From: an uncultured Candidatus Saccharibacteria bacterium
GTDB taxonomy: Bacteria; Patescibacteriota; Minisyncoccia; Sungbacterales; SURF-37
Length of the DNA: 36,195 nt
Direction of reading: 5' to 3'
Assembly (NCBI GenBank): GCA_964363965.1
Contig: CAYIKH010000003.1
Coordinates: forward strand, 1-36,195
Shown one piece after another: positions 7,120 through 36,195 of this stretch (the stretch's first letter is position 1; every line of letters begins with the position of its first letter). A model generated the notes under the pieces. The model saw only the letters and a program-made list of their open reading frames with translations. It was not told where the DNA came from and ran no database searches. The translations under genes were made by a program, and so were the position numbers.

Positions 7120-8952
7120 CTAGGGTTTTTTCATAGTGACGATGTAGCCGGTGGCCAGGAACTTGAGTCTTGTCCGCGCCAAGCTCGCCATCCGTTCTGC
7201 CGCAGCAACCGTGAGTCTGGGGAACATGCGGTCCAGCGGAAAAAGCAAGAGTTTGAAGTTGTAGCCGGCAAAATCAGTGATTTCAAACCCATATTGTCGA
7301 GCCACTCGCCGGATGGCGGCCGCGGTGTATTCGCGGTGTTGGATAGGGTGAGGTTTATGGCCGCTCAAAGCTTGGAATGCTCTCCAAGGGAATTTAAAAA
7401 TGGCCAGTAGAATACGGTTCCAGAGCCGCCAGGGGCTCCAGAGGTTCGGAAATGAGACGATGGCTCTTCCGCTTTCTTTGAGCACACGCTTGAGCTCGCC
7501 TAGGGCATGCTGGTCACTGGAAAGGTATTCAAAAACACCAAGGGCAATGGCTATGTCGCAGGATCGTTCCGGTAGTCCAAGAGCCTCAATATTGCCGACT
7601 TGGGCCTCGAGCCGCGGGTGCCTGAATCTCGCCTTGAGGAGTTCGATCATGGCCGGCGCTATATCAATGGCCATGACCGAAGCCCCGGCCTCAAGCAGTT
7701 CTTCGGTGAGCACGCCGGGCCCGGAACCGATATCAAGCACGCGCTGGTCGCGGATTGGGCCTATCATCTCAAGGGTCAGACGTTTTCGTTCGCGGAAGGA
7801 GAAACCTTCCGGAGTCGGCTCTCCGTAGGCTTTAGCATAGGACTCCGCGCTGGTTTCAAAATATTCATCAGCCGCCAGAGCTCGCCGGGGCCGGAGCAGT
7901 TGTGAAAGCATACTTCGAATACCGGTAACTGTCAGCCGAAAAAGCCGCGGGTCATCAGTGTTATCAAGCGTGAAGCGCGGCAGGACATAAGGGTTTCTAG
8001 CCGAGCCAGCCAAGTCCGGGATAGTGCTCAACGCGGCCCTAAATCCATTCTGGCGAAGTATTGCGATTGTTGAGGCGTCAAAATCGTCTGGTTGACCGTT
8101 GGGATAGGCGAAAATATCCAGAACATCCTTGAGTCGTTGGCGAAGAAGCAAATAAGAGCCGGTTATTTCTTCTTCGGCTTCCGCCGGCGTGAGCCGCGAG
8201 AGGATTGAGTGCGAGCGCGTATGGGCGCCGATGGTAATGCCAGAGCCCTGCATCTCCTTAATTTGCTCCCAGGAAAGGCCGCGGTAGGGCGAGGCCGAAA
8301 AGGTTTTTGCCAACTCGGCTCCGGCTTGATTTTCAACCGCCTCAAGCAGTTTGCTTCCGGCGCGGGCCGTAAGCAGTTTGATGCGTTGGCGGATGGTTTG
8401 GTCGCTCGCGCACCGTTCGGCCAAGGTTGAAAGCGGAAATTCGCGAAACGCCCCGTCCCACGGCAGAATAATGGAATTTTTCCGGCTGTGGCCAATGGCA
8501 TATTCCAGTCGGTCAAACCACAGCGGTTTTCCCGGTTGAACCAGGTCAGTGGCCACGAATACGCTCGCCGGGATGTTGAGCCGCCTTAAATGCGGAAAAG
8601 CGTGAGTGTAGACGTTGTCGTAGCCGTCGTCAAAAGTAATGGCCAGCGCCCGAGGCGGAAGCTGGCCTGGCCCGGCCAGCCGTTCCACCAGTTCGGCCAG
8701 GGGCAGAATAACATAATGCCGTTTTAACCAGACGAGTTGTTCGGCAAAAGCTTGCGGGCCGATGAATTTTTTACGGTAGTTGAATATGCCCTCACCCGAG
8801 CGCGGTGGAATTACGCCATGATAGAGAACAATTGTCGCCTGATCGCGGCGCGAGAGAAGGGCCAGACGCGGCAGCTGGAGGATATCGAGCGCCGTGAAGA
8901 GCCACTGCTTGGCCGTGTTTCCGGCGGCAGTTGGGAAAAATGCTATCATCAA
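7120..8952 (-). CDS. Polysaccharide deacetylase (CE4/NodB) fused to class I SAM-dependent methyltransferase
   Basis: CE4 motifs TFDDG, HTRSH and YPNG in the N-terminal ~330 aa. Methyltransferase motif VLDIGSGPGVLTEELL...AIDIAP and DIAIALGVFEYL in the C-terminal ~220 aa. TTG at 8952; the second codon is an ATG (8947-8949), the likelier start. Confidence 0.85.
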   Translation of the reverse strand: MMIAFFPTAAGNTAKQWLFTALDILQLPRLALLSRRDQATIVLYHGVIPPRSGEGIFNYRKKFIGPQAFAEQLVWLKRHYVILPLAELVERLAGPGQLPPRALAITFDDGYDNVYTHAFPHLRRLNIPASVFVATDLVQPGKPLWFDRLEYAIGHSRKNSIILPWDGAFREFPLSTLAERCASDQTIRQRIKLLTARAGSKLLEAVENQAGAELAKTFSASPYRGLSWEQIKEMQGSGITIGAHTRSHSILSRLTPAEAEEEITGSYLLLRQRLKDVLDIFAYPNGQPDDFDASTIAILRQNGFRAALSTIPDLAGSARNPYVLPRFTLDNTDDPRLFRLTVTGIRSMLSQLLRPRRALAADEYFETSAESYAKAYGEPTPEGFSFRERKRLTLEMIGPIRDQRVLDIGSGPGVLTEELLEAGASVMAIDIAPAMIELLKARFRHPRLEAQVGNIEALGLPERSCDIAIALGVFEYLSSDQHALGELKRVLKESGRAIVSFPNLWSPWRLWNRILLAIFKFPWRAFQALSGHKPHPIQHREYTAAAIRRVARQYGFEITDFAGYNFKLLLFPLDRMFPRLTVAAAERMASLARTRLKFLATGYIVTMKKP

Positions 8953-11387: not shown

Positions 11388-11486
11388 TATATGGCTTTTT
11401 TAGGCGGCTCTTAATTTAATACAGAAATCAACCGGGATCAACGATAGAAATTCAAACAGCCGCTGATGCGGCAAGGGAGGCGGCAA

Positions 11487-12452
11487 ATGGGCAGGGTTCC
11501 GACGGTTGATGAGGTTAGGGCGCATCTCAATGCGCGCGGTCTGTTGAGACTCGTGAACGCGAGTGTGGAGCTCGTGGCCGCGCGGAATCATCTCGTATTT
11601 CGCGTGGAGAAAGCCGGGCAGGTTTTCTGCCTCCGCATGATCAACCCGGAGAGCTACCGGCGGCACGAGTGGATCACGATGGCTGAAGAGTATGCGCTCC
11701 TGCGGGCCATCGAACCCATTGGCCTGGGACCGCAGGCGTACTACCTCGACAAGCACTTCGAACCACCGTTCCTGATTCAGGAGTTCGTCCGAGCGGCGTG
11801 CTTCAACGACTTGAAGCCGCTCGCCGAGGAACACCTCACGGCCGCGGCGCGGGCCATCGCCATACTGAACGCGATGGACATCTCTCCTGCGCACTTCCCC
11901 TTCATGCGGAAGTACGTGCGGAAGGACTATGGGGGGAGCGGCCGCGTCTGGTATTTCCGGCTCTTTGACTCGCTCCGGCGTTTGCCACGGCGGGATGTTC
12001 TCCGGTGGGCCTTGCGGATTCTTCCGCTCATCGGGCGGACCATGGGGTTGCTCTCCCGTACCGCGCCGCTCCTGGGATCCGAGTTCTCCTTCCACTTCGA
12101 TGGCGCTCACTGTGGGAATACCTACTGGCGGGACGGGAGGGTACTCTTCCTCGACTGGCAAAAGGTGAGCTGGCGGAATGACCCGAGCTTCACGCTCGTC
12201 CGTTTCGCCACGTCAGCTGGCGAGGGGGGTATCGTGCCGGAGAGCGTCTGGCAGACGCTCATCGCGGCCTACACCGAAGTGCGGCCGCTTCCCGACTTCG
12301 GCGAGCTCGCTTGGGTGCGGTTTGTCGAGCGCCAAGTCGCGGATCTCGTGTGGGTTCTTTGGGATCATGCACGACGGCAAGATTCGCGGCCGGTCGAGCA
12401 AGGTACGAGCGTCGTACCGCGATACGCGGAAGTGCGGCGGATGCTCCGATAA
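11487..12452 (+). CDS. Aminoglycoside-phosphotransferase / choline-kinase-like (APH fold) kinase
   Basis: AGGGAGG at 11474-11480 lies 6 nt upstream of the ATG at 11487. Catalytic-loop-like HFDGAHCGN followed by LFLDWQ (metal-binding Asp context). Visibly more GC-rich than the flanking GT genes. Confidence 0.7.
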   Translation: MGRVPTVDEVRAHLNARGLLRLVNASVELVAARNHLVFRVEKAGQVFCLRMINPESYRRHEWITMAEEYALLRAIEPIGLGPQAYYLDKHFEPPFLIQEFVRAACFNDLKPLAEEHLTAAARAIAILNAMDISPAHFPFMRKYVRKDYGGSGRVWYFRLFDSLRRLPRRDVLRWALRILPLIGRTMGLLSRTAPLLGSEFSFHFDGAHCGNTYWRDGRVLFLDWQKVSWRNDPSFTLVRFATSAGEGGIVPESVWQTLIAAYTEVRPLPDFGELAWVRFVERQVADLVWVLWDHARRQDSRPVEQGTSVVPRYAEVRRMLR

Positions 12453-22574: not shown

Positions 22575-23867
22575 ATGATTCATGACATATGCATCATTGG
22601 CGGGGCCGGGCATGTCGGACTGCCGCTAGGCGTGGCTTTTGCCAACCAAAGAGTACGGACTGTCCTTTTTGATCGGAACCGGGAGGCTCTTACTAAGATC
22701 CGTTCAGGCGTTTTCCCCTTCAAAGAGAAAAATGGCGAGGCCGAACTCCGGCGTGCCCTCCGGAAAGGGACGCTCGCCACCTCTGAGTCGCCGTCGGTCA
22801 TTGCCAAGAGCGATTTTGTGCTTTTGGTGGTAGGCACGCCGGTGGATGAGTATCTAAACCCGGATATCCACGGCATTGCCCGCACCATCGAGAGTTATTT
22901 CCCATATTTTCGGAACGGGCAAATTTTAATTTTGCGGAGCACGGTCTATCCCGGCACAGCGGAGCGGATTCAAAAATACTTTCAGGAGAATAAAAAACGC
23001 GTCCAGGTCGCCTTTTGCCCGGAGCGCATTGCTCAGGGTCGGGCCCTCGAGGAGATTAGGAAGCTGCCGCAGATTGTATCCGCTTTTGACCCCAAGGCTT
23101 TAGCCCGAGTGGCCGCGCTATTTAAGAAAGTGACGACAAGTGAGATCATTATTGCCAAACCCATGGAAGCGGAACTGGCCAAGCTTTTTTCCAATGCCTG
23201 GCGCTACATTAAATTCGCCGTGGCCAACCAGTTCTACATGATCGCCGCAGATCATCATCTCAATTACCATAAGATCTATGAGGCGATGATGGAGGGTTAC
23301 CCCCGCAATAAAGATCTGCCTCCTCCTGGGTTTGCCGCCGGACCTTGTCTCTTAAAAGACACCATGCAGCTTTCGGCATTCCACTCCAATAACTTTTTCC
23401 TTGGGCACGCAGCCATGCTTGTAAACGAGGGCTTGCCAAACTTCGTAATCAAAAAGTTGAAGCGTTCCTCACCGCCTGGGCCGTCAATACCAGTTAAGCT
23501 GCCCAAGCCAATGGCCCGTTTGGCCAGCGCAAATACTCTGGAAACACTCCTGCATGGAGCGCTCGGCGGGTATGATCTTAAGGCCAAGACCATAGGCATC
23601 TTAGGCATGGCTTTTAAGGCTGATTCCGATGATCCCCGTGATTCTCTATCCTACAAATTGAAAAAAATCGCCGAGGCCGAAGCCAAGGCCGTGCTCTGCC
23701 ATGATGTCCATATTAAGGATCCCTCGTTCGCGCCGCTTGAAACCGTGCTCCGAGAATCGGACATCGTCATTCTGGCCGCGCCGCACAGGGAATATCGCAA
23801 AATTGATCCGCGAAGGTTTCCGCAGAAACACTTTGTTGATATTTGGAATCTTTGGCCACGAAAATGA
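22575..23867 (+). CDS. Nucleotide-sugar dehydrogenase (UDP-glucose/GDP-mannose dehydrogenase family)
   Basis: N-terminal IGGAGHVGLPLGVAFA Rossmann motif. Catalytic Cys context GFAAGPCLLKDT. C-terminal GMAFKADSDDPRDS motif. Confidence 0.85.
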   Translation: MIHDICIIGGAGHVGLPLGVAFANQRVRTVLFDRNREALTKIRSGVFPFKEKNGEAELRRALRKGTLATSESPSVIAKSDFVLLVVGTPVDEYLNPDIHGIARTIESYFPYFRNGQILILRSTVYPGTAERIQKYFQENKKRVQVAFCPERIAQGRALEEIRKLPQIVSAFDPKALARVAALFKKVTTSEIIIAKPMEAELAKLFSNAWRYIKFAVANQFYMIAADHHLNYHKIYEAMMEGYPRNKDLPPPGFAAGPCLLKDTMQLSAFHSNNFFLGHAAMLVNEGLPNFVIKKLKRSSPPGPSIPVKLPKPMARLASANTLETLLHGALGGYDLKAKTIGILGMAFKADSDDPRDSLSYKLKKIAEAEAKAVLCHDVHIKDPSFAPLETVLRESDIVILAAPHREYRKIDPRRFPQKHFVDIWNLWPRK

Positions 23868-24859
23868 AGATTTTAATCACCGGCGCGGCCGGGTTCATTG
23901 GCTATCATCTGGCGCGCCATCTTCTTCATGATCCTAAAGTTGAGCTTGTATTTGTTGATAGCCTCCAACGTAGCAGGATGGATGAAGAGTTTTCGGCGTT
24001 GGTCAAAGAGCCGCAGGTAAGATTTCTCAACTTTGATCTTACCGATCCTGCGGTTTACTCCCAGCTTGGCCGTGGGTACGATCACGTCTATCACCTCGCG
24101 GCCATCAACGGCACCAAGCTCTTTTACGAGATGCCGCAGGAGGTGCTGCGCATAAACACTTTGTCGCTTATCTATATGCTGGAGTGGTTCAAGCGTGAGA
24201 ACCGCCAGGGTAAGTTTTGCTTCACATCCTCTAACGAGGCCTATGCCGGAGCGCTTGCGGCCTTTGGTAAGCTCCCGATTCCGACGCCGGAAAACGTGCC
24301 GCTCGTTATCGAGGATCCTTATAACGCGCGCTGGTCCTATGCCGCATCAAAGCTGGTGGGCGAGCTATTCGTGGTTCATTACGCGGCCAAGCATAATTTC
24401 CGCGCCCTGATTGTCCGGCCGCATAACTTCTACGGCCCACGCGCCGGCTATGACCACGTGATCCCCGAGTTTTCGTTTCGCATTTCAAAGCGCATCGACC
24501 CTTTCCCTATCTGCGGTGCAGATGACACTAGAACCTTTTGCTACATCGGGGATGCTGTGCTGGCAATGCAGTTGTTAATGGATTCGTCTGCGACTGACGG
24601 CCAGCCGATCGAAACCGTTCACATCGGCGATGTCGAGGAGATCACCATGGTTGATCTGGCCGAGAAACTTTTTGCCATTGCCGTCTGGCGGCCGCAGGAG
24701 CTTGACATTAAAAATTCACCCGAAGGAAGCGTGAAGCGGCGGAAGGCCGACATTACTAAGATACAAACTCTTGTCGGCTGGAAGCCAGAAGTCCCGCTTG
24801 AGGGTGGACTAAGGCAGACTTATGAGTGGTATCTGGCTCATCCTAGAGTAGAAATATGA
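23864..24859 (+). CDS. NAD-dependent sugar epimerase/dehydratase (extended SDR)
   Basis: MKILITGAAGFIGYHL (GxxGxxG) and YAASK (YxxxK). The ATG at 23864 overlaps the upstream TGA (ATGA). Confidence 0.85.
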   Translation: MKILITGAAGFIGYHLARHLLHDPKVELVFVDSLQRSRMDEEFSALVKEPQVRFLNFDLTDPAVYSQLGRGYDHVYHLAAINGTKLFYEMPQEVLRINTLSLIYMLEWFKRENRQGKFCFTSSNEAYAGALAAFGKLPIPTPENVPLVIEDPYNARWSYAASKLVGELFVVHYAAKHNFRALIVRPHNFYGPRAGYDHVIPEFSFRISKRIDPFPICGADDTRTFCYIGDAVLAMQLLMDSSATDGQPIETVHIGDVEEITMVDLAEKLFAIAVWRPQELDIKNSPEGSVKRRKADITKIQTLVGWKPEVPLEGGLRQTYEWYLAHPRVEI

Positions 24860-26049
24860 AAGTCTCGATTGGCGCACCAATTTACGATAAACGAGAGATA
24901 CAAGCAGTCTTGAGGGCACTTCGCGAAAAAAGACTGTCGCAGGGAAAGTATGTTAAGGCTTTTGAGCGGGCTTGGGTGAGGTACATTGGTTGTCGTTTTA
25001 GCATTGGCGTAAATTCAGGATCTTCAGCCAATCTCGTGGCTATTCAGGCCATGAAAGAACGTTACGGCTGGAAAGTTGGGGATACGGTCATTGCCCCGGC
25101 TCTTACCTTTGCCACGGCGGTCATGCCAGTTTTACAGGCCGGATTAAGGCCTCTTTTTGCTGATGTGGATTATCGCGGCAATATGACCGCCAAAAGCGTT
25201 TTGGCTGCTTTTAGGAAACATCGAGGTCCTAAAGTGCGGGGCTTGGTACTGGTTCATTCCCTGGGCGTGCCCTGCCTGGATGCTCCAAAAATCCAAAAGT
25301 TTTGCCGTGAAAAAGGCATTAGGATTTTGGAGGATTGTTGTGAATCGCATGGCGCCAAGGTTCAGGGGAAGATGGTCGGCTCTTTCGGCGATGTTTCCAC
25401 CACCTCGTTTTATGTTGCCCATAACATGACCACTGGCGAGGGCGGTATGATCACAACTGATGACCCGAAACTTGATGAAATTTGCCGATCGCTTCGCGAA
25501 TTTGGTCGGCGCATTGATCCGAAAAGCCCGCGCTATGTTCGTTTGGCTTCCGGACCCTCATACGACATCCGTTACGCCTTTGATCGCCTTGGATACAATG
25601 TTCGCATGACTGATATTGCGGCCAGCCTCGGTTTAGTTCAATTATCGAAACTTGAAAAGATGAATGCCAAGCGCAGGCAGATTGCTGGTTGGTACAAAAA
25701 AGGCTTTTTAAATCTTATCTCTCAACGCCTGATTTCCTTGCCTGATGAGCCGGCTGGCACCAAAAACACTTACTACACTCTGCTCATCACTTTTTTGAAA
25801 ATGCCGCCTCGTTTGCCGAGCATCGAAAAGATAGCTCTAAGATTGGAGAAGGCCGGCATAGAGACAAGACCTTTTATGGCTGGAAATCTATTGCGTCAGC
25901 GCGCTTTTAGCCGATGGGGTAAGCCGCAGTTATATCCAATGGCCGAATTTTTGCACCGGAGAAGCCTTTCTGTCGGATGTCATCCGCTGGTCACCGAGGC
26001 CGGCGTGAGTTATGTATGCGAGAATATCAATCGGCTTTACGCCATATGA
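24856..26049 (+). CDS. DegT/DnrJ/EryC1-family PLP/PMP enzyme of the ColD/E1 3-dehydratase subtype
   Basis: NSGSSANL motif. The Schiff-base Lys position reads His (SFYVAHNMTTGEGG; His189, codon 25420-25422). ATGA overlap with the upstream gene. Confidence 0.8.
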   Translation: MKVSIGAPIYDKREIQAVLRALREKRLSQGKYVKAFERAWVRYIGCRFSIGVNSGSSANLVAIQAMKERYGWKVGDTVIAPALTFATAVMPVLQAGLRPLFADVDYRGNMTAKSVLAAFRKHRGPKVRGLVLVHSLGVPCLDAPKIQKFCREKGIRILEDCCESHGAKVQGKMVGSFGDVSTTSFYVAHNMTTGEGGMITTDDPKLDEICRSLREFGRRIDPKSPRYVRLASGPSYDIRYAFDRLGYNVRMTDIAASLGLVQLSKLEKMNAKRRQIAGWYKKGFLNLISQRLISLPDEPAGTKNTYYTLLITFLKMPPRLPSIEKIALRLEKAGIETRPFMAGNLLRQRAFSRWGKPQLYPMAEFLHRRSLSVGCHPLVTEAGVSYVCENINRLYAI

Positions 26050-28480: not shown

Positions 28481-29809
28481 ATGAAAACCATATTCATTAC
28501 CAGCTTCCACGTCCTGATTTCGCGGAATATTCTGGCCGCTCCGCTTCTCGGCGAGCTTCTTAATCAGGGTAATGTTCGGGCGGTATTGCTTGTTCCCGAA
28601 CGCAAGCGCCAATTTTTTGAGCAGGAGTTTGGCCGACCGGGGGTGATCATTGAAGGAGTACCGCGCATGCTTAACCGGCGCGATGCTTTTTTACGCTATT
28701 TGGCTCTTGCTTCGTTAAACACAAAATCGCTTGCCATCAAGCGCCGGACCGAGATGCGGGGGATGGGCAGTTGGCTGGTTAAGTTCATCGGCAACCGGCC
28801 GCGGGCAAGAAGCATTATCCGGCGGCTGGATAACTGGCTTACTCCCCGCGAACGTTTCGGTTCATTGCTTGACCGCTACCAGCCAAGGCTGATTTTCTCG
28901 ACGGATGTTCAGAACGAAAATGATATTCGGTTCATTCGCGAAGCTAAGGATCGGGGTATTACGGTTGCCGGTATGGTCAGGTCGTGGGACAATCTCACTG
29001 CCAAGGGTTTGATTCGGGCGATACCCGATATCCTTATTGTCAACAACGAAATCATTAAGCGCGAAGCAGTAGAACTTCATGGCATTCCGGAATCAAGGAT
29101 TCGCGTAGTCGGCATTCCGCACTATGACCGCTACACCGGGCCGGCTCATTCCCGGGAGGAGTTTTCGCGGCAAGCCGGCCTTGATCCGGCCAAGCCATTC
29201 GTGCTTTACGCGCCTACCGGAGACCGCTACCTTGCCGAAAACCAGGTTGATCAGGAAATTATAAAAATAATCGCCCCCTCTTTACCCGCCAGTCACCAGC
29301 TTCTGGTGCGATTACCTCCGGCAGATAGCGTGAATCTTAAAGATTTTTCAACTCCGGCCAATGTTTTTTTTGACCGCCCTGGCCGACAGCTCGCGCGAGA
29401 TCCGAATCTTTTCCGGCTGAATGAACTTACCCGCGAGGATGATGATCATCTCCGCGATACTCTGGCTTTTTGTGATCTGGTTATTGCCGGCCCCTCAACC
29501 ATAATCATTGACGCCGCGGTTTTTGATAAGCCGGTGATTTTAATAGGTTTTGACGGCGCCAAAACTACTCCTTACTATCAAAGCATCCGCCGCTATTATG
29601 ACTATGACCATTTCCAGCCGGTATTAAAAAACAGGGGAGTGAGATTGGCAAAAAGCGTGGGCGAACTAAAAGAATGGCTGGCAAAGTATATTAAAGAGCC
29701 GGCACTGGATCAGGCCGGCCGCGCAAAAATTCGGGAGGAGCAATGCCTCAAGCTTGACGGACAGTCCAGCCAGCGTCTGGCCGAGACGCTTTTGAGCTTT
29801 CTGGCATAA
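28481..29809 (+). CDS. Uncharacterised GT-B-like protein, distantly TagF-like (paralogue 1)
   Basis: The motif order GIPHYDRY ... PFVLYAPTGDRY ... CDLVIAGPSTIIIDAAVFDKPVIL ... YYDYD parallels the G-x-P-R-x-D ... LYAPT-x-R ... ITDYSS ... KP layout of CDP-glycerol glycerophosphotransferases. The key residues differ. Confidence 0.55.
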   Translation: MKTIFITSFHVLISRNILAAPLLGELLNQGNVRAVLLVPERKRQFFEQEFGRPGVIIEGVPRMLNRRDAFLRYLALASLNTKSLAIKRRTEMRGMGSWLVKFIGNRPRARSIIRRLDNWLTPRERFGSLLDRYQPRLIFSTDVQNENDIRFIREAKDRGITVAGMVRSWDNLTAKGLIRAIPDILIVNNEIIKREAVELHGIPESRIRVVGIPHYDRYTGPAHSREEFSRQAGLDPAKPFVLYAPTGDRYLAENQVDQEIIKIIAPSLPASHQLLVRLPPADSVNLKDFSTPANVFFDRPGRQLARDPNLFRLNELTREDDDHLRDTLAFCDLVIAGPSTIIIDAAVFDKPVILIGFDGAKTTPYYQSIRRYYDYDHFQPVLKNRGVRLAKSVGELKEWLAKYIKEPALDQAGRAKIREEQCLKLDGQSSQRLAETLLSFLA

Positions 29810-29811
29810 AT

Positions 29812-31206
29812 ATGAAAACCATTTTTATCACCAGTTTCCATCCGCTCATTTCTCGGAATATCATCTCCACCGAGTTTCTTTCGGATTTGACGGCAATGGG
29901 AAACGAGGTCGTGGTTCTCGTGCCGAGTTACAAGCGTTCGTTCTTCGAAGAAACCTATCGCCGTTCCGGCATCCGCTTCGAGGGCATTGATACCGGGCCG
30001 GGGGCGCGTTCCCGCTGGGTGAAAATCGCAAAGCGAGTTGCCGAAGCTTTGCCGGATACCCGGCGCGCGGCCATTGGGCGCAGGCGCACACTCACCGGGA
30101 AACGGAAACACGCCTTCATCTACTGGCTCTTCTATGCCCCGCTGGGGCTCGCCGGAAAATCGCATCGTGCGGTTCGATGGTTCCGGTGGCTCGATTTCTT
30201 TCTTGCGCCGGCTGGGCGTTTCTACTCGATCCTGGACCGCTACCGGCCGGCATTGGTGTTTTCAACCGACATTCAGAACGAACACGACGTCGGGCTTATG
30301 CAGGATGCCCGGCGCCGGGGTTACCCGATTCTCGGCATGGTGAGGTCGTGGGACAACCTCACCACGCGGGCATTGCGGTTTGTACCTCCGCATATTGTTG
30401 TCCACAACGAAATCATAAAAGCCGAGGCCGTGCGTTACCACGGCATTACGCCGGAGGAGGTGAGTGTGGTCGGGATCCCGCATTACGATCGTTACCTCCG
30501 GGGACCAACGCTCGGCCGGGCGGAGTTTTTCGAGAGCATCGGCGCGCGTCTCGGTACCAAACTGATCCTCTATTTTCCGATTTGCGACTATCGCTTGGAG
30601 AGGAATATCGTGGATCCCTACGTCATCGGCCTTTTAGGCAAAACCGACGGCATCACCACGCTGGTTCGTTTTCCACCTGCGGCATCGGTGGATCTTGGGG
30701 ATTTCGTCAAACCTCGCACAGTGGTCTATGATACGCCCGGCCGCGAGTTTCAATCAGGACGCGTGGATGATCGGGAGCTCACGCCCGCGGATGATGAACG
30801 GCTGGTGAATGCTCTTGTCTGGTGTGACGTCGCAGTTGCCGGCCCGTCGACGGCGGTCATTGATGCGGCACTTTTCAACAAGCCGGTCATGCTCATTGAC
30901 CTGTATCCGCGCGATCTTCCGGACGAAGGGCGGATTTACGAGTACGGAGCGGAGCATATCGCGAATATTCTTGCGGCAGGCGGCGCGCAACTGGTCAGGA
31001 GCGAGCGGGAATTCTTCGCGGCACTCAACCGGTATCTGGAACATCCCGAGGCCGATGCGCTCGGGCGCGAGTGTATTGTTCGGGAACAGTGCTGGCAATG
31101 TGACGGGAAAGCCTGCGAACGGCTGGCCCGCCTTGTCCATGCGTATGCGAGTTCCGGGCATCGCGCCCTCGGTGATCAGAAAACCCGGAATTCTCCGGGA
31201 AGGTAG
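29812..31206 (+). CDS. Uncharacterised GT-B-like protein, distantly TagF-like (paralogue 2)
   Basis: Same N-terminus as paralogue 1 (MKTIFITSFHPLISRNI). Shared MVRSWDNLT, NEIIK, VVGIPHYDRY and AGPST motifs. It starts 2 nt after the upstream stop. Confidence 0.55.
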   Translation: MKTIFITSFHPLISRNIISTEFLSDLTAMGNEVVVLVPSYKRSFFEETYRRSGIRFEGIDTGPGARSRWVKIAKRVAEALPDTRRAAIGRRRTLTGKRKHAFIYWLFYAPLGLAGKSHRAVRWFRWLDFFLAPAGRFYSILDRYRPALVFSTDIQNEHDVGLMQDARRRGYPILGMVRSWDNLTTRALRFVPPHIVVHNEIIKAEAVRYHGITPEEVSVVGIPHYDRYLRGPTLGRAEFFESIGARLGTKLILYFPICDYRLERNIVDPYVIGLLGKTDGITTLVRFPPAASVDLGDFVKPRTVVYDTPGREFQSGRVDDRELTPADDERLVNALVWCDVAVAGPSTAVIDAALFNKPVMLIDLYPRDLPDEGRIYEYGAEHIANILAAGGAQLVRSEREFFAALNRYLEHPEADALGRECIVREQCWQCDGKACERLARLVHAYASSGHRALGDQKTRNSPGR

Positions 31207-31229
31207 TAAGGATAGGATTCTTGGGCTAC

Positions 31230-33281
31230 ATGACAGCATTTGAACGGCGACTCCGATCACTGCTCAAACCGGATACGCGCCGGCTAATTTTGCGTCGCAT
31301 CAGGAATCGCGCCGCCATGCGCTGGCGTCATGTTGTCTCGCCCCATCCCGCCCTGATTCATGCCGGAGCACGGCGAATCGGCCCGGGGGAGCCTGTGTTC
31401 GTTATCGCCGAAATCGGCGTGAACCATAACGGGAGCGTGGAGCGGGCCAAGCAGTTGATTGACGCGGCGCATGCGGCCGGGGCTGACGCGGTGAAATTTC
31501 AGATTCGGCATCTTCCCGCGACCTATCGGGCCGACGTCCTCGAGCACCCCGAGCGCGAGGAGCAGTCATTCCAATATTTGATTCCACTCTTGAAGGAATT
31601 TGAACTTTCGCGGGATGCGTACCGCGAGCTTTTCCGCTATGCCCGCGCGCTCGGCATACTCGCCTTCGCCTCGGCCTTCGATGAACCGACGGTTGATTTT
31701 GTCTCCGAATTCCAGCCGCCCCTGTACAAAGTCGCGTCAGCCGACCTTATTCATTTCCCCCTGATCGAGCGCCTCCTCGAGGAGCGAACGCCGCTCCTGC
31801 TCTCGACCGGAATGTCCACACTGGATGAAGTTGATGAAACCGCGGCGTTCCTCGATCACCGCCGCGCCTCCTTCGCGCTCCTTCATTGCCAGTCAACGTA
31901 TCCGGCGTCGGTTGATACGCTGAATCTTGCGATGATTCCGAAACTGCGGCATCGCTATGGCGTTCCCGTTGGCTATTCGGGGCACGAGCTCGGCATCACG
32001 AACACGATTGCTGCGGTGGCCCTTGGCGCCTCGGTCATCGAGCGCCACATCACACTCGACCGAACGCTCGCTGGTCCGGATCACTCATCTTCGCTCGAGC
32101 CCGCCGTGTTCGCTCTGCTGGTGAAAGGAATCCGCGAGTACGAGATCGCCTACGGCGTTCCGGTGAGGCGTATTTCGCGGGGTGAAGTCGGTAATCGCCT
32201 GACGCTCCGCAAGAGCTTGGTTGCGGCCTCCGATATTCCGGCCGGTGCGGTGATTACGCGCGATCGAGTGACGGCGAAGAGTCCGGGGAACGGCATTTCG
32301 CCCCAGCGTTTGTATGAACTCGTGGGCCGCAGGGCTTCTCGCGCCATCACGGCCGATGAGATGTTCACCGAATCGGATCTCGGCCGCGTGGAGAAGCCGC
32401 CGGCAACGCTTCCCGCGTTCTCATCCTCGTGGGGGCTGAAGGCGCGATTCCTCGAGCTTGACCGGCTTTCGCAGATTCGCCCCCGACCGAAGTTTTTTGA
32501 ATTTCATTGCTCGTACGCGGACCTGGATGTTGGGCTCGATCCGGACACGCGCTACCCGCAAGGGCTTGTCGTGCACGCGCCGGAATACTTCGGGAGGAAG
32601 GTTGTGGATCTCGCGGCTGCCGATCCGGCACTGTGGGAGGATTCCATTCGCGTCATGCAGCGTACGATCAACAAGACCCGCGAAATCGCGGGAAGCTTCG
32701 TGGGAACGCCCAAAGTCGTGATTCATGTGGGCGGTATGTCCCTTGAACCGAACGCGGATCATGCCGCTTTACTTAAGCGCGCCGAGGACGCGTTTCGGCG
32801 GCTCGATACCGCGGGCGTTGAAATTTTGCCTGAAAACCTTCCTCCATTCGGCTGGTTTTTTTCCGGATTGTGGCACTGTAATGTCTTCGGGGACGCCGAT
32901 GAGATGGTGAGGTTCTGTAGGCACCTCGGATACCGCATGTGCTTGGATCTTTCGCATGCCTGGCTCTACACGACGCACCATGGCCTTGATTACCTTGAAT
33001 ACCTGGAAAAGACCGCGCCCATCGCTGGTCACCTCCACATTGCCGACGGTCGCGGTTCGCACAAGGAGGGGCTTCAGATTGGCGAAGGCGATGTTCCGTT
33101 TGGAGAGGCATTCCGGGTGCTCGCAAAACACTTGCCGCGCGATCGCGAAGTCACCTGGGTTCCTGAAGTATGGCAGGGTCAGCTTGATGACTATCGTCAT
33201 TTCCGGATTGCGCTTGCGAAACTTGCGGCCTATCCGTTTCTGATGAACGATAGGGGGCAGGAACCCGTCCACGAAGTATGA
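31230..33281 (+). CDS. NeuB-type ulosonic (sialic) acid synthase with SAF domain, fused to a xylose-isomerase-like TIM-barrel domain
   Basis: NeuB motifs IAEIGVNHNGS, KFQ, STGMS, LLHCQSTYP, GYSGHELG, ERHITLDR..GPDHSSSLEP. SAF-like RKSLVAASDIPAGAVITRD. The C-terminal ~290 aa carry VVHAPEYF, VIHVGG, PENLPP, DLSHAW and HLHIADGRG (sugar-phosphate isomerase/epimerase TIM-barrel pattern). ATG at 31230 (TTG at 31221). Confidence 0.8.
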   Translation: MTAFERRLRSLLKPDTRRLILRRIRNRAAMRWRHVVSPHPALIHAGARRIGPGEPVFVIAEIGVNHNGSVERAKQLIDAAHAAGADAVKFQIRHLPATYRADVLEHPEREEQSFQYLIPLLKEFELSRDAYRELFRYARALGILAFASAFDEPTVDFVSEFQPPLYKVASADLIHFPLIERLLEERTPLLLSTGMSTLDEVDETAAFLDHRRASFALLHCQSTYPASVDTLNLAMIPKLRHRYGVPVGYSGHELGITNTIAAVALGASVIERHITLDRTLAGPDHSSSLEPAVFALLVKGIREYEIAYGVPVRRISRGEVGNRLTLRKSLVAASDIPAGAVITRDRVTAKSPGNGISPQRLYELVGRRASRAITADEMFTESDLGRVEKPPATLPAFSSSWGLKARFLELDRLSQIRPRPKFFEFHCSYADLDVGLDPDTRYPQGLVVHAPEYFGRKVVDLAAADPALWEDSIRVMQRTINKTREIAGSFVGTPKVVIHVGGMSLEPNADHAALLKRAEDAFRRLDTAGVEILPENLPPFGWFFSGLWHCNVFGDADEMVRFCRHLGYRMCLDLSHAWLYTTHHGLDYLEYLEKTAPIAGHLHIADGRGSHKEGLQIGEGDVPFGEAFRVLAKHLPRDREVTWVPEVWQGQLDDYRHFRIALAKLAAYPFLMNDRGQEPVHEV

Positions 33282-34021
33282 ATACGTCCGCTCCCAGAAA
33301 ATCGGTGAATATCCTCGGCATTATTCCCGCGCGCGGCGGTTCAAAATCCATTCCCCGGAAAAACTTGGCGCCGGTGCTCGGCAAGCCGCTGGTTTCCTAT
33401 TCAATCCGTTCGGCCCAGCAGTCGAAGCTCTTGGATGCGTTTCTTGTAAGTACGGATGACGCCGAAATCGCCGAGGTAGCGCGATCCTGTGGGGCCGACG
33501 TGCCGTTCCTGCGGCCGAAGGAGTTTTCACGGGATGATTCTCTGGACATTGAATTCCTGCGTCATGCTCTTGATTGGCTTGAGGCTGAACGCGGCTGGAA
33601 GCCCGAGATTGTCGTGAACCTGCGCCCCACCGGGCCGCTTCGCACCGGTGAGGATATTGACCGCGTTATTCAGCTGATGCTCGATACCGGCTGCGATTCA
33701 GCGCGCACCGTATCAATTCCCGCGCATAACCCCTTCAAGATGTGGCGAGTGGATGCGGCGAGCGCCAGAATGGATCCGCTCATTCCCACCGAACATTTTG
33801 CCGTGCTCGGCACGGACGTGCCGCGTCAGCTCCTCCCCCAGAACGTCTATTGGCAAAACGGCCTCGTGGACGCGACGCGGGCGAAGTTCATCCGCGAGGG
33901 CAGGATCTACGGTCCGGATATCCGCGGCGTTGTCGTTGACCTCCGCAAGGCCATTGACATTGATGATCCCGAGGACCTGGACCGTGTCCAAAAGCGGCTG
34001 GAGGAATTCGGCCTCGCTTGA
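33278..34021 (+). CDS. Acylneuraminate cytidylyltransferase-like CMP-ulosonic-acid synthetase
   Basis: GIIPARGGSKSIPRKNL...STDD...FLRP signature of the NeuA/CTP_transf_3 family. ATGA overlap with the upstream gene. Confidence 0.85.
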   Translation: MNTSAPRKSVNILGIIPARGGSKSIPRKNLAPVLGKPLVSYSIRSAQQSKLLDAFLVSTDDAEIAEVARSCGADVPFLRPKEFSRDDSLDIEFLRHALDWLEAERGWKPEIVVNLRPTGPLRTGEDIDRVIQLMLDTGCDSARTVSIPAHNPFKMWRVDAASARMDPLIPTEHFAVLGTDVPRQLLPQNVYWQNGLVDATRAKFIREGRIYGPDIRGVVVDLRKAIDIDDPEDLDRVQKRLEEFGLA

Positions 34022-34025
34022 TGTC

Positions 34026-35000
34026 ATGAATATCCTCATTGTCGGGACGGGATCCATCGGGCGCCGTCATTTCCGGAACCTTCATGCGCTTGGCTTTCGG
34101 AAACTTGCCGTTGTTCGATCCAAGCATCGCATGGACGGGCCCCAGCGCGAGTTTTTTGCAAAATACCGGCCGCGGGTGTTCTATGACCTCGCCACCGCCC
34201 TAGCTGAAAGATCCGATGCCATGGTTGTCTCGAATCCGACGAGTTTGCACGTCCGAACGGCTCGCGTCGCGATTCGCGCCGGCGCCCATGTTTTCATCGA
34301 AAAGCCCATCTCTCACTCGCGATCCGGTGTTGCCGAGCTGCTTCGCGAAGCGCGGCGGCGAAAACTTATCGTATACATGGGTTATCATTTTCGTCACCAT
34401 CCGCTCCTGAAAGCGGCTAAGCGCCTGCTCGATGCAGGCAAGCTCGGCAAACTCCATAGCGCTCGATTCATCACCGGCGAATATTTGCCGGGCTGGCATC
34501 CCTGGGAGGACTACCGCAAGGGCTATGCCGCCAGGCGCGATCTTGGCGGGGGAGTGGTGCTCACCCAGAGCCATGACCTTGATCTCATCTCCTGGTTTTT
34601 CGGGAAGCCCCGATTGGTTGCCGCTGACGTGCGCTCAAGCGGCGCGCTTGGCATTCCCGTGGATGATATCGCCGTGATTACTTTCGCCACCCCGCGCTGT
34701 CCGGTCGTTGTTTCGCATCTCGATTATCTCTCGCGGCCGCCGGTGAAAGAATTTACCATCAGCGGATCGCGGGGGCGCCTCGAATGGGACTATCAGGGGA
34801 ATTTTTTGCGCCTTGTCTTAGCGAACGGCAAAGCGCGCACCATGAAACTACCGACTGGCTTTAAGCGGAACGACATGTACGTTGCGGAAATCAAGGATTT
34901 CATCCGCTGCATTCGGCAGGGGAGGAAGCCGGAAACGGACGGGCAAGCTGGCGCAGCCGTGCTCGAAATAGCTCTCGGCGCAATGGACGCAAGAAGGTAA
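34026..35000 (+). CDS. Gfo/Idh/MocA-family NAD(P)-dependent oxidoreductase
   Basis: MNILIVGTGSIGRRH Rossmann N-terminus and the HVFIEKP motif. The start is set at the ATG at 34026, 4 nt after the upstream stop. The 33753 extension overlaps the NeuA-like gene in another frame. Confidence 0.85.
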   Translation: MNILIVGTGSIGRRHFRNLHALGFRKLAVVRSKHRMDGPQREFFAKYRPRVFYDLATALAERSDAMVVSNPTSLHVRTARVAIRAGAHVFIEKPISHSRSGVAELLREARRRKLIVYMGYHFRHHPLLKAAKRLLDAGKLGKLHSARFITGEYLPGWHPWEDYRKGYAARRDLGGGVVLTQSHDLDLISWFFGKPRLVAADVRSSGALGIPVDDIAVITFATPRCPVVVSHLDYLSRPPVKEFTISGSRGRLEWDYQGNFLRLVLANGKARTMKLPTGFKRNDMYVAEIKDFIRCIRQGRKPETDGQAGAAVLEIALGAMDARR

Positions 35001-35167
35001 CGACAGACGTTGCAAATCGAAAGAGGACGGAGGTATCGCGAGGTTCGCGCTACAACAGTTTGCAGATCTTTCTTGGCGAGAGCCAGGGTTACTTCCGCCA
35101 GCGCATGATCGGCGTAACGCTCATGGCAGTCGGGGCTGCACTCCTCGCGTTTTGATCCGTCTTCCAA

Positions 35168-35205
35168 CAGCGGCCGTGGCAAGCCACGCCGCTGCCTTTA
35201 TTTTT
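35168..35205 (+). terminator. Rho-independent terminator (plus-strand orientation)
   Basis: 11-bp GC-rich stem with one bulge (cagcggccgtgg / ccacgccgctg), loop caag, then cctttattttt. The T-tract overlaps the stop codon of the convergent minus-strand gene. Confidence 0.65.
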
Positions 35206-36058
35206 GCGCTTTAAAACAATACGCAAGAACATAATTGTCCGCCTCCGGAATGGATGCATACAGCGGAGAGAACGCTCTGAGCAATATATTATGGGCTTTT
35301 CTCGAAAGCCGAACGAGAAGCATCAATATTGTATTGATGAAGAAATTCGAAGAATAGGTGGCCTTCATGGCATATACGTTGAAGAAGCTTCTGTGGAACG
35401 TCCGATAGACATCGAAAGGCCGTCCGATATTTTTGACCTCAACTTCCTTAAAGCCGCTTTCACGAAAGAGTTTCTCGAGCGCAAATCTTGTATAACGGTA
35501 AAAATCATACGGGGCAGAATGAATGGGATGGAAAAAAGGAACCGAGCCAAGACAATATCCATCTGGTTTCAAAATCCGCGAAATTTCTGAAATAAAAAGG
35601 AGTGGATTCGGAATATGTTCTAACACCTCAGTAATAAAAACAATGTCGGCAGCGGAATCTTTAATGGGAAGCGGCTTCGTAAGGTCGGTAACGATATGAA
35701 CCGAGCTGTAGGGCACAAAATCCACTCCGATCTTCGTGTGAAAGTCCTTAGTGAGCTCCTGGAGGCGGTTGGTGCCGATTCCCATATCTAAAAAAATTTT
35801 ATTGCGATCTTCTTTTTCAAGAATTCGTTTAAAATAATCAATCCCGATTTTTCTTTGGACGCTAAAATCGCGAATGTATTTTTTCGTCTCATCGTGCATT
35901 TTGGCGTCCTGCGGAACTTCAGAAAAAAATATTCTGCCATCTTTAAATAAATATTTTTCTTCACAGCGAGAACACTGCAAAAAATCTCCAACAAAAAAAA
36001 GATCCGACCCAAAACACTTTGTGCATCGAATCAATTTTGTCAATTTAGTTTTGTCCAT
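35198..36058 (-). CDS. Class I SAM-dependent methyltransferase with N-terminal zinc-ribbon (Trm112-like) segment
   Basis: CTKC...CSRC zinc ribbon. FLDMGIGTN (degenerate motif I) and DIVFITEVLEHIPNP. Clearly AT-richer than the rest of the window. Confidence 0.75.
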   Translation of the reverse strand: MDKTKLTKLIRCTKCFGSDLFFVGDFLQCSRCEEKYLFKDGRIFFSEVPQDAKMHDETKKYIRDFSVQRKIGIDYFKRILEKEDRNKIFLDMGIGTNRLQELTKDFHTKIGVDFVPYSSVHIVTDLTKPLPIKDSAADIVFITEVLEHIPNPLLFISEISRILKPDGYCLGSVPFFHPIHSAPYDFYRYTRFALEKLFRESGFKEVEVKNIGRPFDVYRTFHRSFFNVYAMKATYSSNFFINTILMLLVRLSRKAHNILLRAFSPLYASIPEADNYVLAYCFKAQK

Positions 36059-36092
36059 GCGTTTTTAAAAATTTAAATGTTTTGGGAATTTC

Positions 36093-36195
36093 TTACCCGG
36101 CGAAAGTTTGAGCGGTGTGTTTAACACCATTCAGCAATCCCCTAATGACAGAACCAACGTTTTCTTTATTTTGAGTTTTCATTCTGACCCTGGTA
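36093..36195 (-). CDS. Possible 3' end of a minus-strand gene that starts beyond the window edge (or a 29-aa ORF from the ATG at 36182)
   Basis: Open frame from the window edge to the TAA at 36093-36095 (...MKTQNKENVGSVIRGLLNGVKHTAQTFAG). It lies 34 nt upstream of the methyltransferase start and has the same AT-rich composition. No recognisable domain. Confidence 0.2.
   Translation of the reverse strand, partial: TRVRMKTQNKENVGSVIRGLLNGVKHTAQTFAG

Follow-up and report, generated by a model that had tools for sequence, protein, structure and literature searches.

The five-gene block

The window analysed here is the whole stretch of 36,195 nucleotides (nt) from contig CAYIKH010000003.1 (assembly GCA_964363965.1) of an uncultured Candidatus Saccharibacteria bacterium. 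It holds a large surface-glycan locus with many glycosyltransferases of families 4 (GT4) and 2 (GT2), a flippase, a PMT_2-type protein, and several methyltransferases. The ribosomal protein L25 encoded in it has its best named matches in Candidatus Parcubacteria and Candidatus Sungbacteria, at 68% identity, which places the organism in the candidate phyla radiation. Towards its end, five genes on the + strand form a block whose central member is a fusion of a NeuB-type synthase, a SAF domain, and a TIM barrel. The other four encode two TagB/TagF-like proteins of the GT-B fold, a predicted cytidine monophosphate (CMP)-ulosonate synthetase, and an oxidoreductase of the Gfo/Idh/MocA family, hereafter Gfo (Table 1). 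The block is one member of a module that is conserved in at least eight phyla, and confidence is high that this module is real, conserved, and non-canonical.

Table 1. Coordinates of the block, its domains, and the downstream hairpin in the window
Feature	Coordinates	Strand	Evidence
TagB/TagF-like GT-B protein 1, 442 aa, putative CMP-ulosonate transferase/polymerase	28481..29809	+	Pfam Glyphos_transf 6.6e-12, 45.5 bits
TagB/TagF-like GT-B protein 2, 464 aa, paralogue of protein 1	29812..31206	+	Glyphos_transf 28.7 bits
NeuB-SAF-TIM fusion, 686 aa from TTG	31221..33281	+	Pfam NeuB, SAF, AP_endonuc_2
NeuB synthase domain, aa 79-313	31455..32159	+	S-G-H-E at aa 253-256, Arg96 in KFQxR motif
SAF (antifreeze-like) domain, aa 331-387	32211..32381	+	Pfam SAF 7.9e-12
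Endonuclease IV / MJ1311-like metal TIM barrel, aa 396-686, proposed ulosonate-phosphate phosphatase	32406..33278	+	Profiles, AlphaFold (AF2) model
Predicted CMP-ulosonate synthetase, 247 aa, start overlaps fusion stop codon (ATGA)	33278..34021	+	CTP_transf_3 2.9e-20
Gfo/Idh/MocA NAD(P) oxidoreductase, 324 aa	34026..35000	+	Pfam GFO_IDH_MocA N- and C-terminal domains
Probable terminator: GC-rich hairpin and T-rich tract, before convergent methyltransferase gene	35168..35206	+	Sequence, RNA fold

Successive genes are separated by a 2-nt gap, a 23-nt gap, an ATGA overlap, and a 4-nt gap. The 23 nt are counted from ATG 31230; the fusion could also start at TTG 31221, but the ATG is likelier and is backed by relatives of 683 aa. 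The GC content is 0.57-0.61 across 30-35 kb, compared to 0.48-0.49 at 9-11 kb and 0.44 past 35 kb. The original prediction, which was made from the sequence alone, had described a tightly packed block with this domain content that is richer in GC than the genes at 9-11 kb and ends at a compositional break, and the open reading frames, Pfam matches, and composition agree with it on each of these points. It had also placed a strong terminator at the end of the block. A hairpin with a stem of about 11 bp is present at about 35168-35194 and is followed by a T-rich tract, but it is only moderate. A generic hairpin scan returned weak hairpins only, 14 against 9.8 +/- 4.0 in shuffled sequence and thus no excess, and the label "strong" was dropped for this reason.

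The window was searched in six frames with hidden Markov models (HMMs) and phmmer over all 36 kb. No Epimerase_2 gene of the NeuC/LegG type, no hexapeptide/PglD N-acetyltransferase, and no KdsC/NANP-type HAD was found in it. The original prediction had listed these functions as missing, together with a 4,6-dehydratase and its paired aminotransferase. The first part stands, whereas the window does contain a dehydratase-like short-chain dehydrogenase/reductase (SDR) gene and a DegT gene, both far under the PseB, PseC, LegB, and LegC cut-offs.

The fusion family and its locus classes

The fusion matches Pfam NeuB at 1.6e-74 (250.9 bits), SAF at 7.9e-12, and AP_endonuc_2 at 3.1e-20. All of the best 120 homologue clusters in a protein search have the NeuB-SAF-AP_endonuc_2 architecture, at 45-99% identity, and more than 120 full-length clusters share it. 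Their sources are metagenome-assembled genomes labelled Elusimicrobia, Dehalococcoidia, Yanofskybacteria, Nitrospinota, Anaerolineae, Acidobacteriota, and Patescibacteria. Scanning a single genome for each GTDB species with an alignment query adds fusions from Planctomycetota, Verrucomicrobia, Fibrobacteria, Actinomycetota, Saccharibacteria, and a Geopsychrobacteraceae chromosome. Two cultured organisms, Phycicoccus sonneratiae and the haloarchaeon Natronococcus roseus, also carry it. Gene contexts were examined in Patescibacteria, Elusimicrobia, Chloroflexota, Planctomycetota, Fibrobacteria, Actinomycetota, a Geopsychrobacteraceae bacterium, and a haloarchaeon. A literature search found no paper that describes the NeuB-SAF-TIM fusion, and the database name of the protein is merely "N-acetylneuraminate synthase family protein".

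In a set of 1.84 billion proteins, the TIM domain is detected in only 569 clusters at 50% identity, mostly as the C-terminus of NeuB proteins of 620-770 aa. In every relative of the fusion, the barrel is fused to, or directly adjoins, this type of NeuB. In a split form from metagenome contigs, NeuB-SAF and TIM are encoded by two genes in different reading frames, with a few bases of overlap (L099:1389-3259, L100:2642-4530, L102:9935-11832, and L103:7709-9606), and these four loci contain no HAD and no Epimerase_2. A small family that lies either C-terminal to NeuB or in an overlapping gene indicates that the TIM domain is dedicated to this synthase. Many homologues of 766-776 aa (P0087-P0120) add a C-terminal CBS domain to NeuB-SAF-TIM, and a subgroup comprising L019, L020, L021, and L022, and also L018, has an N-terminal extension of about 110 aa.

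Loci were sorted by NeuB type, their open reading frames were called, HMMs were built for recurrent neighbour families, and the families were annotated with Pfam. The classes are fusion only (n = 21), canonical NeuB controls from the same scan (n = 41), short NeuB of about 290 aa with neither SAF nor a fused TIM (n = 16), and mixed loci with both a fusion and a short NeuB (n = 4). The three unmixed classes differ sharply in three neighbour families (Table 2).

Table 2. Loci of each NeuB class that contain three neighbour families
Locus class	Epimerase_2	Hexapeptide N-acetyltransferase	KdsC-type HAD
Fusion only (n = 21)	0	0	0
Canonical NeuB (n = 41)	35	27	0
Short NeuB (n = 16)	1	1	15

Fisher tests give 1.6e-11 for Epimerase_2 in fusion versus canonical loci, 1.7e-9 for HAD in fusion versus short loci, and 7e-13 for HAD in short versus canonical loci. 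The HADs that occur near fusions are all explained by the four mixed loci. Independent metagenome contigs give the same picture: 10 fused loci and the 4 split loci lack both Epimerase_2 and HAD, and Epimerase_2 is present in 43 of 55 canonical loci. Each NeuB type is thus paired with an obligate partner of its own, which is the nucleotide-sugar hydrolysing epimerase for the canonical type, the HAD phosphatase for the short type, and the TIM domain for the fusion. This distribution suggests a phospho-sugar route in which the TIM domain stands in place of the HAD phosphatase.

Other neighbours of the fusion-only loci are the CMP-synthetase (18 of 21), Gfo (12), adh_short (10), a KpsS/C-like Capsule_synth protein (7), TagF-like proteins (6, and all four of the mixed loci), DegT (2, compared to 30 of the 41 canonical controls), and NTP_transferase (2). 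The original prediction had proposed a coherent ulosonic acid module with a different entry route, to be checked by comparative genomics. The comparison bears it out: the TIM barrel accompanies the synthase in every relative, the CMP-synthetase and Gfo recur, and neither Epimerase_2 nor HAD occurs in any fusion-only locus.

In the short class, the HAD and the CMP-synthetase often form one fused protein. The HAD exceeds the TIGR01670 KdsC cut-off and is also matched by the Bacteroides model for 3-deoxy-D-glycero-D-galacto-nonulosonic acid (KDN) 9-phosphate phosphatase. The short class makes up a second non-canonical module in related loci (L086:3712-8610, L070:1658-7500, L084:8754-10888, L079, and L044), which comprises a short S-G-H-E NeuB without SAF, a CMP-synthetase-HAD fusion, Gfo, and adh_short. 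Some of these loci add a stand-alone UlaE-like AP_endonuc_2 TIM barrel, which is not related to the fused TIM. Stand-alone relatives of the fused TIM domain were sought in the short-NeuB loci and none was found, the UlaE-like barrel there giving E > 10.

A relative that is 89% identical (L087) continues after Gfo with adh_short, UDPG_MGDP_dh (a nucleoside diphosphate (NDP)-sugar dehydrogenase), a short NeuB, a second CMP-synthetase, and two more TagF-like genes (L087:11057-19321). None of these downstream genes is present in the window after the GC break (35001-36195), and the convergent methyltransferase gene is found instead. The window block appears to be cut short or replaced after the Gfo gene.

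In Chloroflexota loci (L010-L016, L023, and L070; for example L012:5354-13517), a bifunctional ATP sulfurylase/adenosine phosphosulfate kinase lies between Gfo and adh_short. A KpsS/KpsC-like Capsule_synth protein directly follows the fusion in these loci, and 2-3 sulfotransferases lie close by. This gene content suggests sulfated ulosonate glycans.

Synthase, TIM domain, and the proposed route

The residues K92, Q94, K170, H255, and H276 are invariant in 45 homologues and represent the metal-binding His and the phosphoenolpyruvate (PEP)/sugar-binding Lys and Gln of the NeuB family. The fusion lies below the NCBIfam equivalog cut-offs for both NeuB_NnaB (313.8 versus 399.65 bits) and PseI (248.6 versus 340.25 bits). 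The sequence flanking the first metal-binding His is S-G-H-E in 22 of 22 fusions, 12 of 13 short NeuBs, and 5 of 5 vertebrate N-acetylneuraminic acid (Neu5Ac)-9-phosphate synthases. It is S-D-H-[TS] in 38 of 38 canonical sequences, and also in the solved SpsE, 6ncs, PseI, and Neisseria meningitidis NeuB (NmNeuB). The window fusion has S-G-H-E and not S-D-H-[TS]. Arg96, two residues past the sugar-binding Gln, is found only in the fusion and short clades, and L329 is shared with the five vertebrate synthases and the HAD-linked short clade. The NeuB domains of the fusions group as a single clade in a neighbour-joining tree, beside the short clade and outside the canonical clade of the legionaminic acid (Leg) type, and the vertebrate synthases fall on the fusion/short side.

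Animal Neu5Ac-9-phosphate synthases condense N-acetylmannosamine 6-phosphate or mannose 6-phosphate with PEP, and their product needs a phosphatase. For two of the three S-G-H-E groups there is a connection to a phosphatase, which comes from experiment in one case and from gene linkage in the other. On its signature, the synthase domain of the fusion looks like a phospho-sugar enzyme.

The AF2 model of the TIM domain, built from 45 homologues, has a pLDDT of 94. Foldseek places it at a TM score of 0.6-0.67 to UlaE, D-psicose 3-epimerase, MJ1311, and endonuclease IV. Sequence profiles discriminate better. Against the sequences of solved structures in the PDB, the profile matches MJ1311 at 4.9e-17, Mycobacterium endonuclease IV at 1.5e-6, Thermotoga endonuclease IV at 1e-3, and UlaE at 0.024; the single sequence gives only a marginal match to MJ1311, so that the profile is needed. 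The best NCBIfam matches are weak and include the cobamide phosphodiesterase CbiR, nfo, and some epimerases, with the nfo models far under their cut-offs. No IolE signal was obtained for the fused TIM domain in either the PDB profile search or NCBIfam.

The conserved residues of the TIM domain are His452, His502, Glu538, Asp576, His579, His606, Asp609, Glu616, Gln619, and Glu649. The endonuclease IV motifs HAP, H-x-G-G, E-N, D-x-x-H, H-x-x-D, and the final E are present, and 7 of the 9 metal-ligand positions of endonuclease IV are kept (H452, H502, E538, D576, H579, H606, and E649). In the subgroup L019-L022, His502 is changed to Ser or Asn and Glu538 to Gln, always together, as is expected if both form one site. 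MJ1311 itself reportedly keeps the trinuclear site of endonuclease IV and has no DNA groove. CbiR, a member of the AP_endonuc_2 superfamily, is a small-molecule phosphodiesterase, which means that this superfamily can hydrolyse small-molecule phosphoesters (PMC7733943).

On the PseF model, the CMP-synthetase of the window reaches 133 bits, compared to about 60 or less on KdsB models. The window Gfo shares 36-63% identity with its counterparts in fusion and short-NeuB loci across phyla, and only 26-31% with those in canonical Leg-type (PtmF-type) loci. By this measure it is assigned to a subfamily that is common to the fusion and short modules and distantly related to PtmF. A closer relation, with Gfo as a PtmF orthologue, was considered and is weakened by the BLAST identities, since the high score behind it came from a control-locus HMM that contained short-class members. 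Gfo adjoins the CMP-synthetase in 11 of 14 control loci. A probable role of Gfo, together with adh_short, is to adjust the sugar in its stereochemistry or oxidation state.

The two TagB/F-like paralogues are 41% identical over 458 aa, and both exceed the Pfam Glyphos_transf (PF04464) cut-off of 22.1 bits, at the scores given in Table 1. The match of protein 1 to the NCBIfam BFO_1060 family is weak (42.9 bits versus a cut-off of 200). A CMP-ulosonate synthetase is present and no TarI/J or TagD gene was found in the window, which suggests that a CMP-sugar is the donor for these proteins. TagB-like transferases of pseudaminic acid (Pse) and Leg derivatives are genetically established in Tannerella forsythia (PMC5420450). 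With this precedent and the recurrence of TagB/F-like enzymes in the loci, the earlier proposal that the TagF-like proteins install the sugar remains attractive.

The best reading of the block, to which a rough probability of 0.45 is given, is a compact ulosonic acid pathway that would be independent of nucleotide sugars. Its substrate would be a sugar phosphate of central metabolism. The simplest candidate is a hexose-6-phosphate such as mannose-6-phosphate. The stereochemistry or oxidation state of the substrate may first be altered by Gfo; adh_short, which is present in nearly half of the fusion-only loci, is absent from the window. The NANS-like S-G-H-E synthase domain would then form an ulosonate phosphate from the sugar phosphate and PEP, and the fused endonuclease IV/MJ1311-like TIM domain would hydrolyse the phosphate ester. 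In this step it would replace the KdsC/NANP-type HAD of the sister clade, animals, and Bacteroides. The CTP_transf_3 enzyme would produce the CMP-activated sugar, and the two TagB/F-like GT-B paralogues would transfer or polymerise it onto a cell-surface glycan.

A broader reading is plausible but tentative. It takes the TIM barrel as a new, non-HAD class of ulosonate-phosphate phosphatase on a NANS-like synthase which, with the Gfo and SDR oxidoreductases, would provide a self-contained route without a nucleotide-sugar step to an undescribed CMP-ulosonic acid. This route would be widespread in candidate-phyla-radiation bacteria, Chloroflexota, Actinomycetota, and a haloarchaeon. TagF-like or KpsS/C-like enzymes would polymerise its product to surface polymers similar to teichulosonic acid, which would be sulfated in Chloroflexota.

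Several points weigh against the phosphatase reading. To our knowledge, no AP_endonuc_2 member acts as a sugar-acid phosphomonoesterase. The fused TIM lacks the D-R-H segment, which in endonuclease IV carries two third-site metal ligands, and has an invariant G-E-G-L-Q-I-G-E-G instead. The E-D-H-E tetrad of epimerases is present. The top Foldseek matches are ketose 3-epimerases (UlaE and D-psicose 3-epimerase), though at a TM score of just 0.6-0.67. The neighbour-joining grouping of fusion, short, and NANS sequences has no statistical support, and the mean distances between the groups are similar. The link of S-G-H-E with a phosphorylated substrate is a correlation across clades and not proof of a specificity determinant. 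Extended SDRs of the nucleotide-sugar type adjoin the fusion in about 8 of 21 loci, and the window has an RmlD-like gene in addition to a trio of SDR, DegT, and NDP-sugar dehydrogenase genes, so that nucleotide-sugar chemistry may feed the pathway. A second, UlaE-like TIM barrel is present in some loci (L092 and L094).

Part of this evidence leads to an unlikely but serious alternative, in which the TIM domain is a metal-dependent epimerase or isomerase of sugars or sugar phosphates that makes the aldose for the fused synthase. The reaction could be a 2-epimerisation, a ketose-to-aldose conversion, or an epimerisation beside a keto group made by Gfo. The conserved tetrad and the best Foldseek matches, which also include D-tagatose 3-epimerase-like proteins, favour such a role, as do weak NCBIfam matches to fructoselysine 3-epimerase and hydroxypyruvate isomerase. 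Some short-NeuB modules hold a separate UlaE-like TIM with Gfo and adh_short, so teams of a TIM barrel and an oxidoreductase do exist near these synthases, but that barrel is not detectably related to the fused one. The profiles put MJ1311 and endonuclease IV far above the epimerases (4.9e-17 and 1.5e-6 versus 0.024), and the HAP, H-x-G-G, and D-x-x-H motifs are of the endonuclease IV type. Glu538, the would-be catalytic base, is Gln in one subgroup. An epimerase would also leave an S-G-H-E-type pathway without a phosphatase, yet the HAD is kept in 15 of 16 TIM-less relatives. This alternative includes the suggestion of the original prediction that Gfo and the TIM barrel make a keto or deoxy sugar in the manner of IolG and IolE. 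That suggestion is not supported: the fused TIM has no IolE signal, the IolG model gives Gfo 92.1 bits where its cut-off is 355, and related Gfo proteins also occur in loci without a fused TIM, namely the short-NeuB class and canonical Leg-type loci.

It is improbable that the TIM domain acts on a nucleotide sugar or a sugar-1-phosphate as a hydrolase that frees the sugar for condensation and is a non-homologous stand-in for NeuC, LegG, or PseG. Such a hydrolase would account for the lack of Epimerase_2 in all 21 fusion-only loci and all 14 fused or split metagenome loci, whereas 35 of 41 and 43 of 55 canonical loci have it. The fusion often has extended SDRs and NDP-sugar dehydrogenases as neighbours, and the TIM domain has relatives of the phosphodiesterase type in endonuclease IV and CbiR (PMC7733943). 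On the other side, NTP_transferase is rare (2 of 21 loci), and the synthase signature is of the NANS type and not of the free-sugar type. The mutual exclusion with the HAD is also explained more directly by a phosphatase role.

A product of eight carbons would be equally surprising. Here, the organisation would be the same, but a Kdo-like octulosonate would be formed from a pentose-5-phosphate, as a NeuB-family analogue of KdsA-KdsC-KdsB. The sister-clade HAD scores 132.6 and 108.8 bits on KdsC models, compared to 85.8 bits on the Bacteroides KDN-9-phosphate phosphatase model, and the sister-clade UlaE-like TIM resembles pentulose-5-phosphate epimerases. The preference of the window CMP-synthetase for PseF over KdsB models stands against this, and the closest characterised relatives by signature are the Neu5Ac-9-phosphate synthases. 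All characterised NeuB-family enzymes that we know of make nine-carbon acids.

The upstream trio lies 2.4-5.9 kb before the block and consists of an NDP-sugar dehydrogenase (22575-23867), the extended-SDR 4,6-dehydratase-like gene (23843-24859), and a DegT aminotransferase (24856-26049). The genes overlap by 4-25 nt and look translationally coupled. The SDR scores 102 bits against the LegB cut-off of 475 and 37.5 against the PseB cut-off of 407.75; DegT scores 206.6 against 423.5 for PseC and 163.2 against 420 for LegC. As hidden Leg/Pse precursor genes, the three were rejected as members of the module for these low scores and for their lack of co-occurrence with the fusion. A possible product is a 4-amino sugar for the same glycan, with the genes arranged similarly to Ugd/ArnA/ArnB. 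An ordinary Leg, Pse, or Neu pathway, with this SDR and DegT or genes elsewhere in the genome supplying the precursor and the TIM as an accessory or regulatory appendage, is very unlikely: the two genes are weakly similar to LegB, PseC, and LegC and just 36 kb of this genome is in view, but both are far under every equivalog cut-off, DegT occurs in 2 and the N-acetyltransferase in 0 of 21 fusion-only loci, the TIM active-site residues are invariant across phyla, and the synthase signature is unlike that of every solved Neu, Pse, or Sps synthase.

The contacts of microbial surfaces with their environment, including hosts and phages, are shaped by sialic-like acids, whose prediction in genome surveys relies mainly on the gene sets for Neu, Leg, and Pse. 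Such rules would miss or mislabel the present module, although many uncultured lineages and at least the two cultured organisms named above have it. The S-G-H-E versus S-D-H-[TS] difference offers a simple candidate sequence marker for predicting phospho-sugar versus free-sugar use. If the phosphatase reading is true, the AP_endonuc_2 superfamily would gain a new catalytic role, and the KdsC/NANP phosphatase would have undergone a clear non-orthologous displacement. The bacterial synthases would be linked to the animal 9-phosphate route, and a CMP-sugar that may be new would become accessible in a few enzymatic steps.

Elsewhere in the window, a GC-rich open reading frame at 11466-12452 on the + strand (0.63 GC, 328 aa) has no Pfam match. 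It is overlapped by a 253-aa open reading frame at 11400-12161 on the - strand, and is surrounded by glycosyltransferase genes of lower GC content. The - strand also encodes a tandem double GT4 glycosyltransferase of 763 aa (4828-7119) and a polysaccharide deacetylase fused to a methyltransferase, of 610 aa (7120-8952).

Comparison with known systems

Canonical clusters for Neu5Ac (NeuBCA), Leg (LegB/C/H/G/I/F with PtmA/E/F), and Pse (PseB/C/H/G/I/F) resemble the block in having a NeuB synthase with SAF and a cytidylyltransferase of the NeuA/LegF/PseF type. A Gfo-type oxidoreductase beside the CMP-synthetase is also in line with LegF-PtmF (PMC4481668). In contrast, no NeuC/LegG was found in the block (PseG was not searched with a model of its own), and there is no N-acetyltransferase or PtmE. 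The signature is S-G-H-E instead of S-D-H-[TS], and the low identity of Gfo to its canonical counterparts is a further difference.

Endonuclease IV, MJ1311 (PDB 3wqo), and CbiR are the best profile matches of the fused TIM and share its motifs, and 7 of the 9 metal ligands of endonuclease IV are conserved in it. The fused TIM differs from them by the deletion of the third-site ligands, its fusion to a synthase, scores far below the family cut-offs, and the absence of a DNA-related context.

The TagB-like transferases of T. forsythia (Tanf_01245, TFUB4_00887, and BFO_1060) resemble those of the window in that a GT-B TagB/F-like gene lies next to a NeuB/CMP-synthetase pair. When compared to them, the window has two paralogues, and the BFO_1060 model is matched far below its cut-off. 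The Streptomyces teichulosonic acid (Kdn polymer) locus SCO4873-4882 is on record (PMC13011467), and is likened to the module on the basis of this record. The higher-carbon CMP-ulosonic acids of Magnetospirillum (SugarBase preprint) were considered and set aside, as no gene-level link to the module was found.

The 9-phosphate route is represented by NANS and NANP in animals and by KDN-9-phosphate synthase, its phosphatase, and CMP-KDN synthetase in Bacteroides thetaiotaomicron. It shares with the block the S-G-H-E signature, as seen in the vertebrate synthases, the absence of a nucleotide-sugar hydrolase, and a CMP-synthetase that follows the synthase, and the sister short clade has a matching HAD of the KdsC/KDN-9-phosphate type. 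The block differs in that there is no HAD in the window or in the 21 fusion-only loci, and an endonuclease IV/MJ1311-like TIM is fused to the synthase instead. Gfo and adh_short are extra conserved partners of the fusion module. By analogy, the module would work like the 9-phosphate route of animals and Bacteroides, and like KdsA-KdsC-KdsB.

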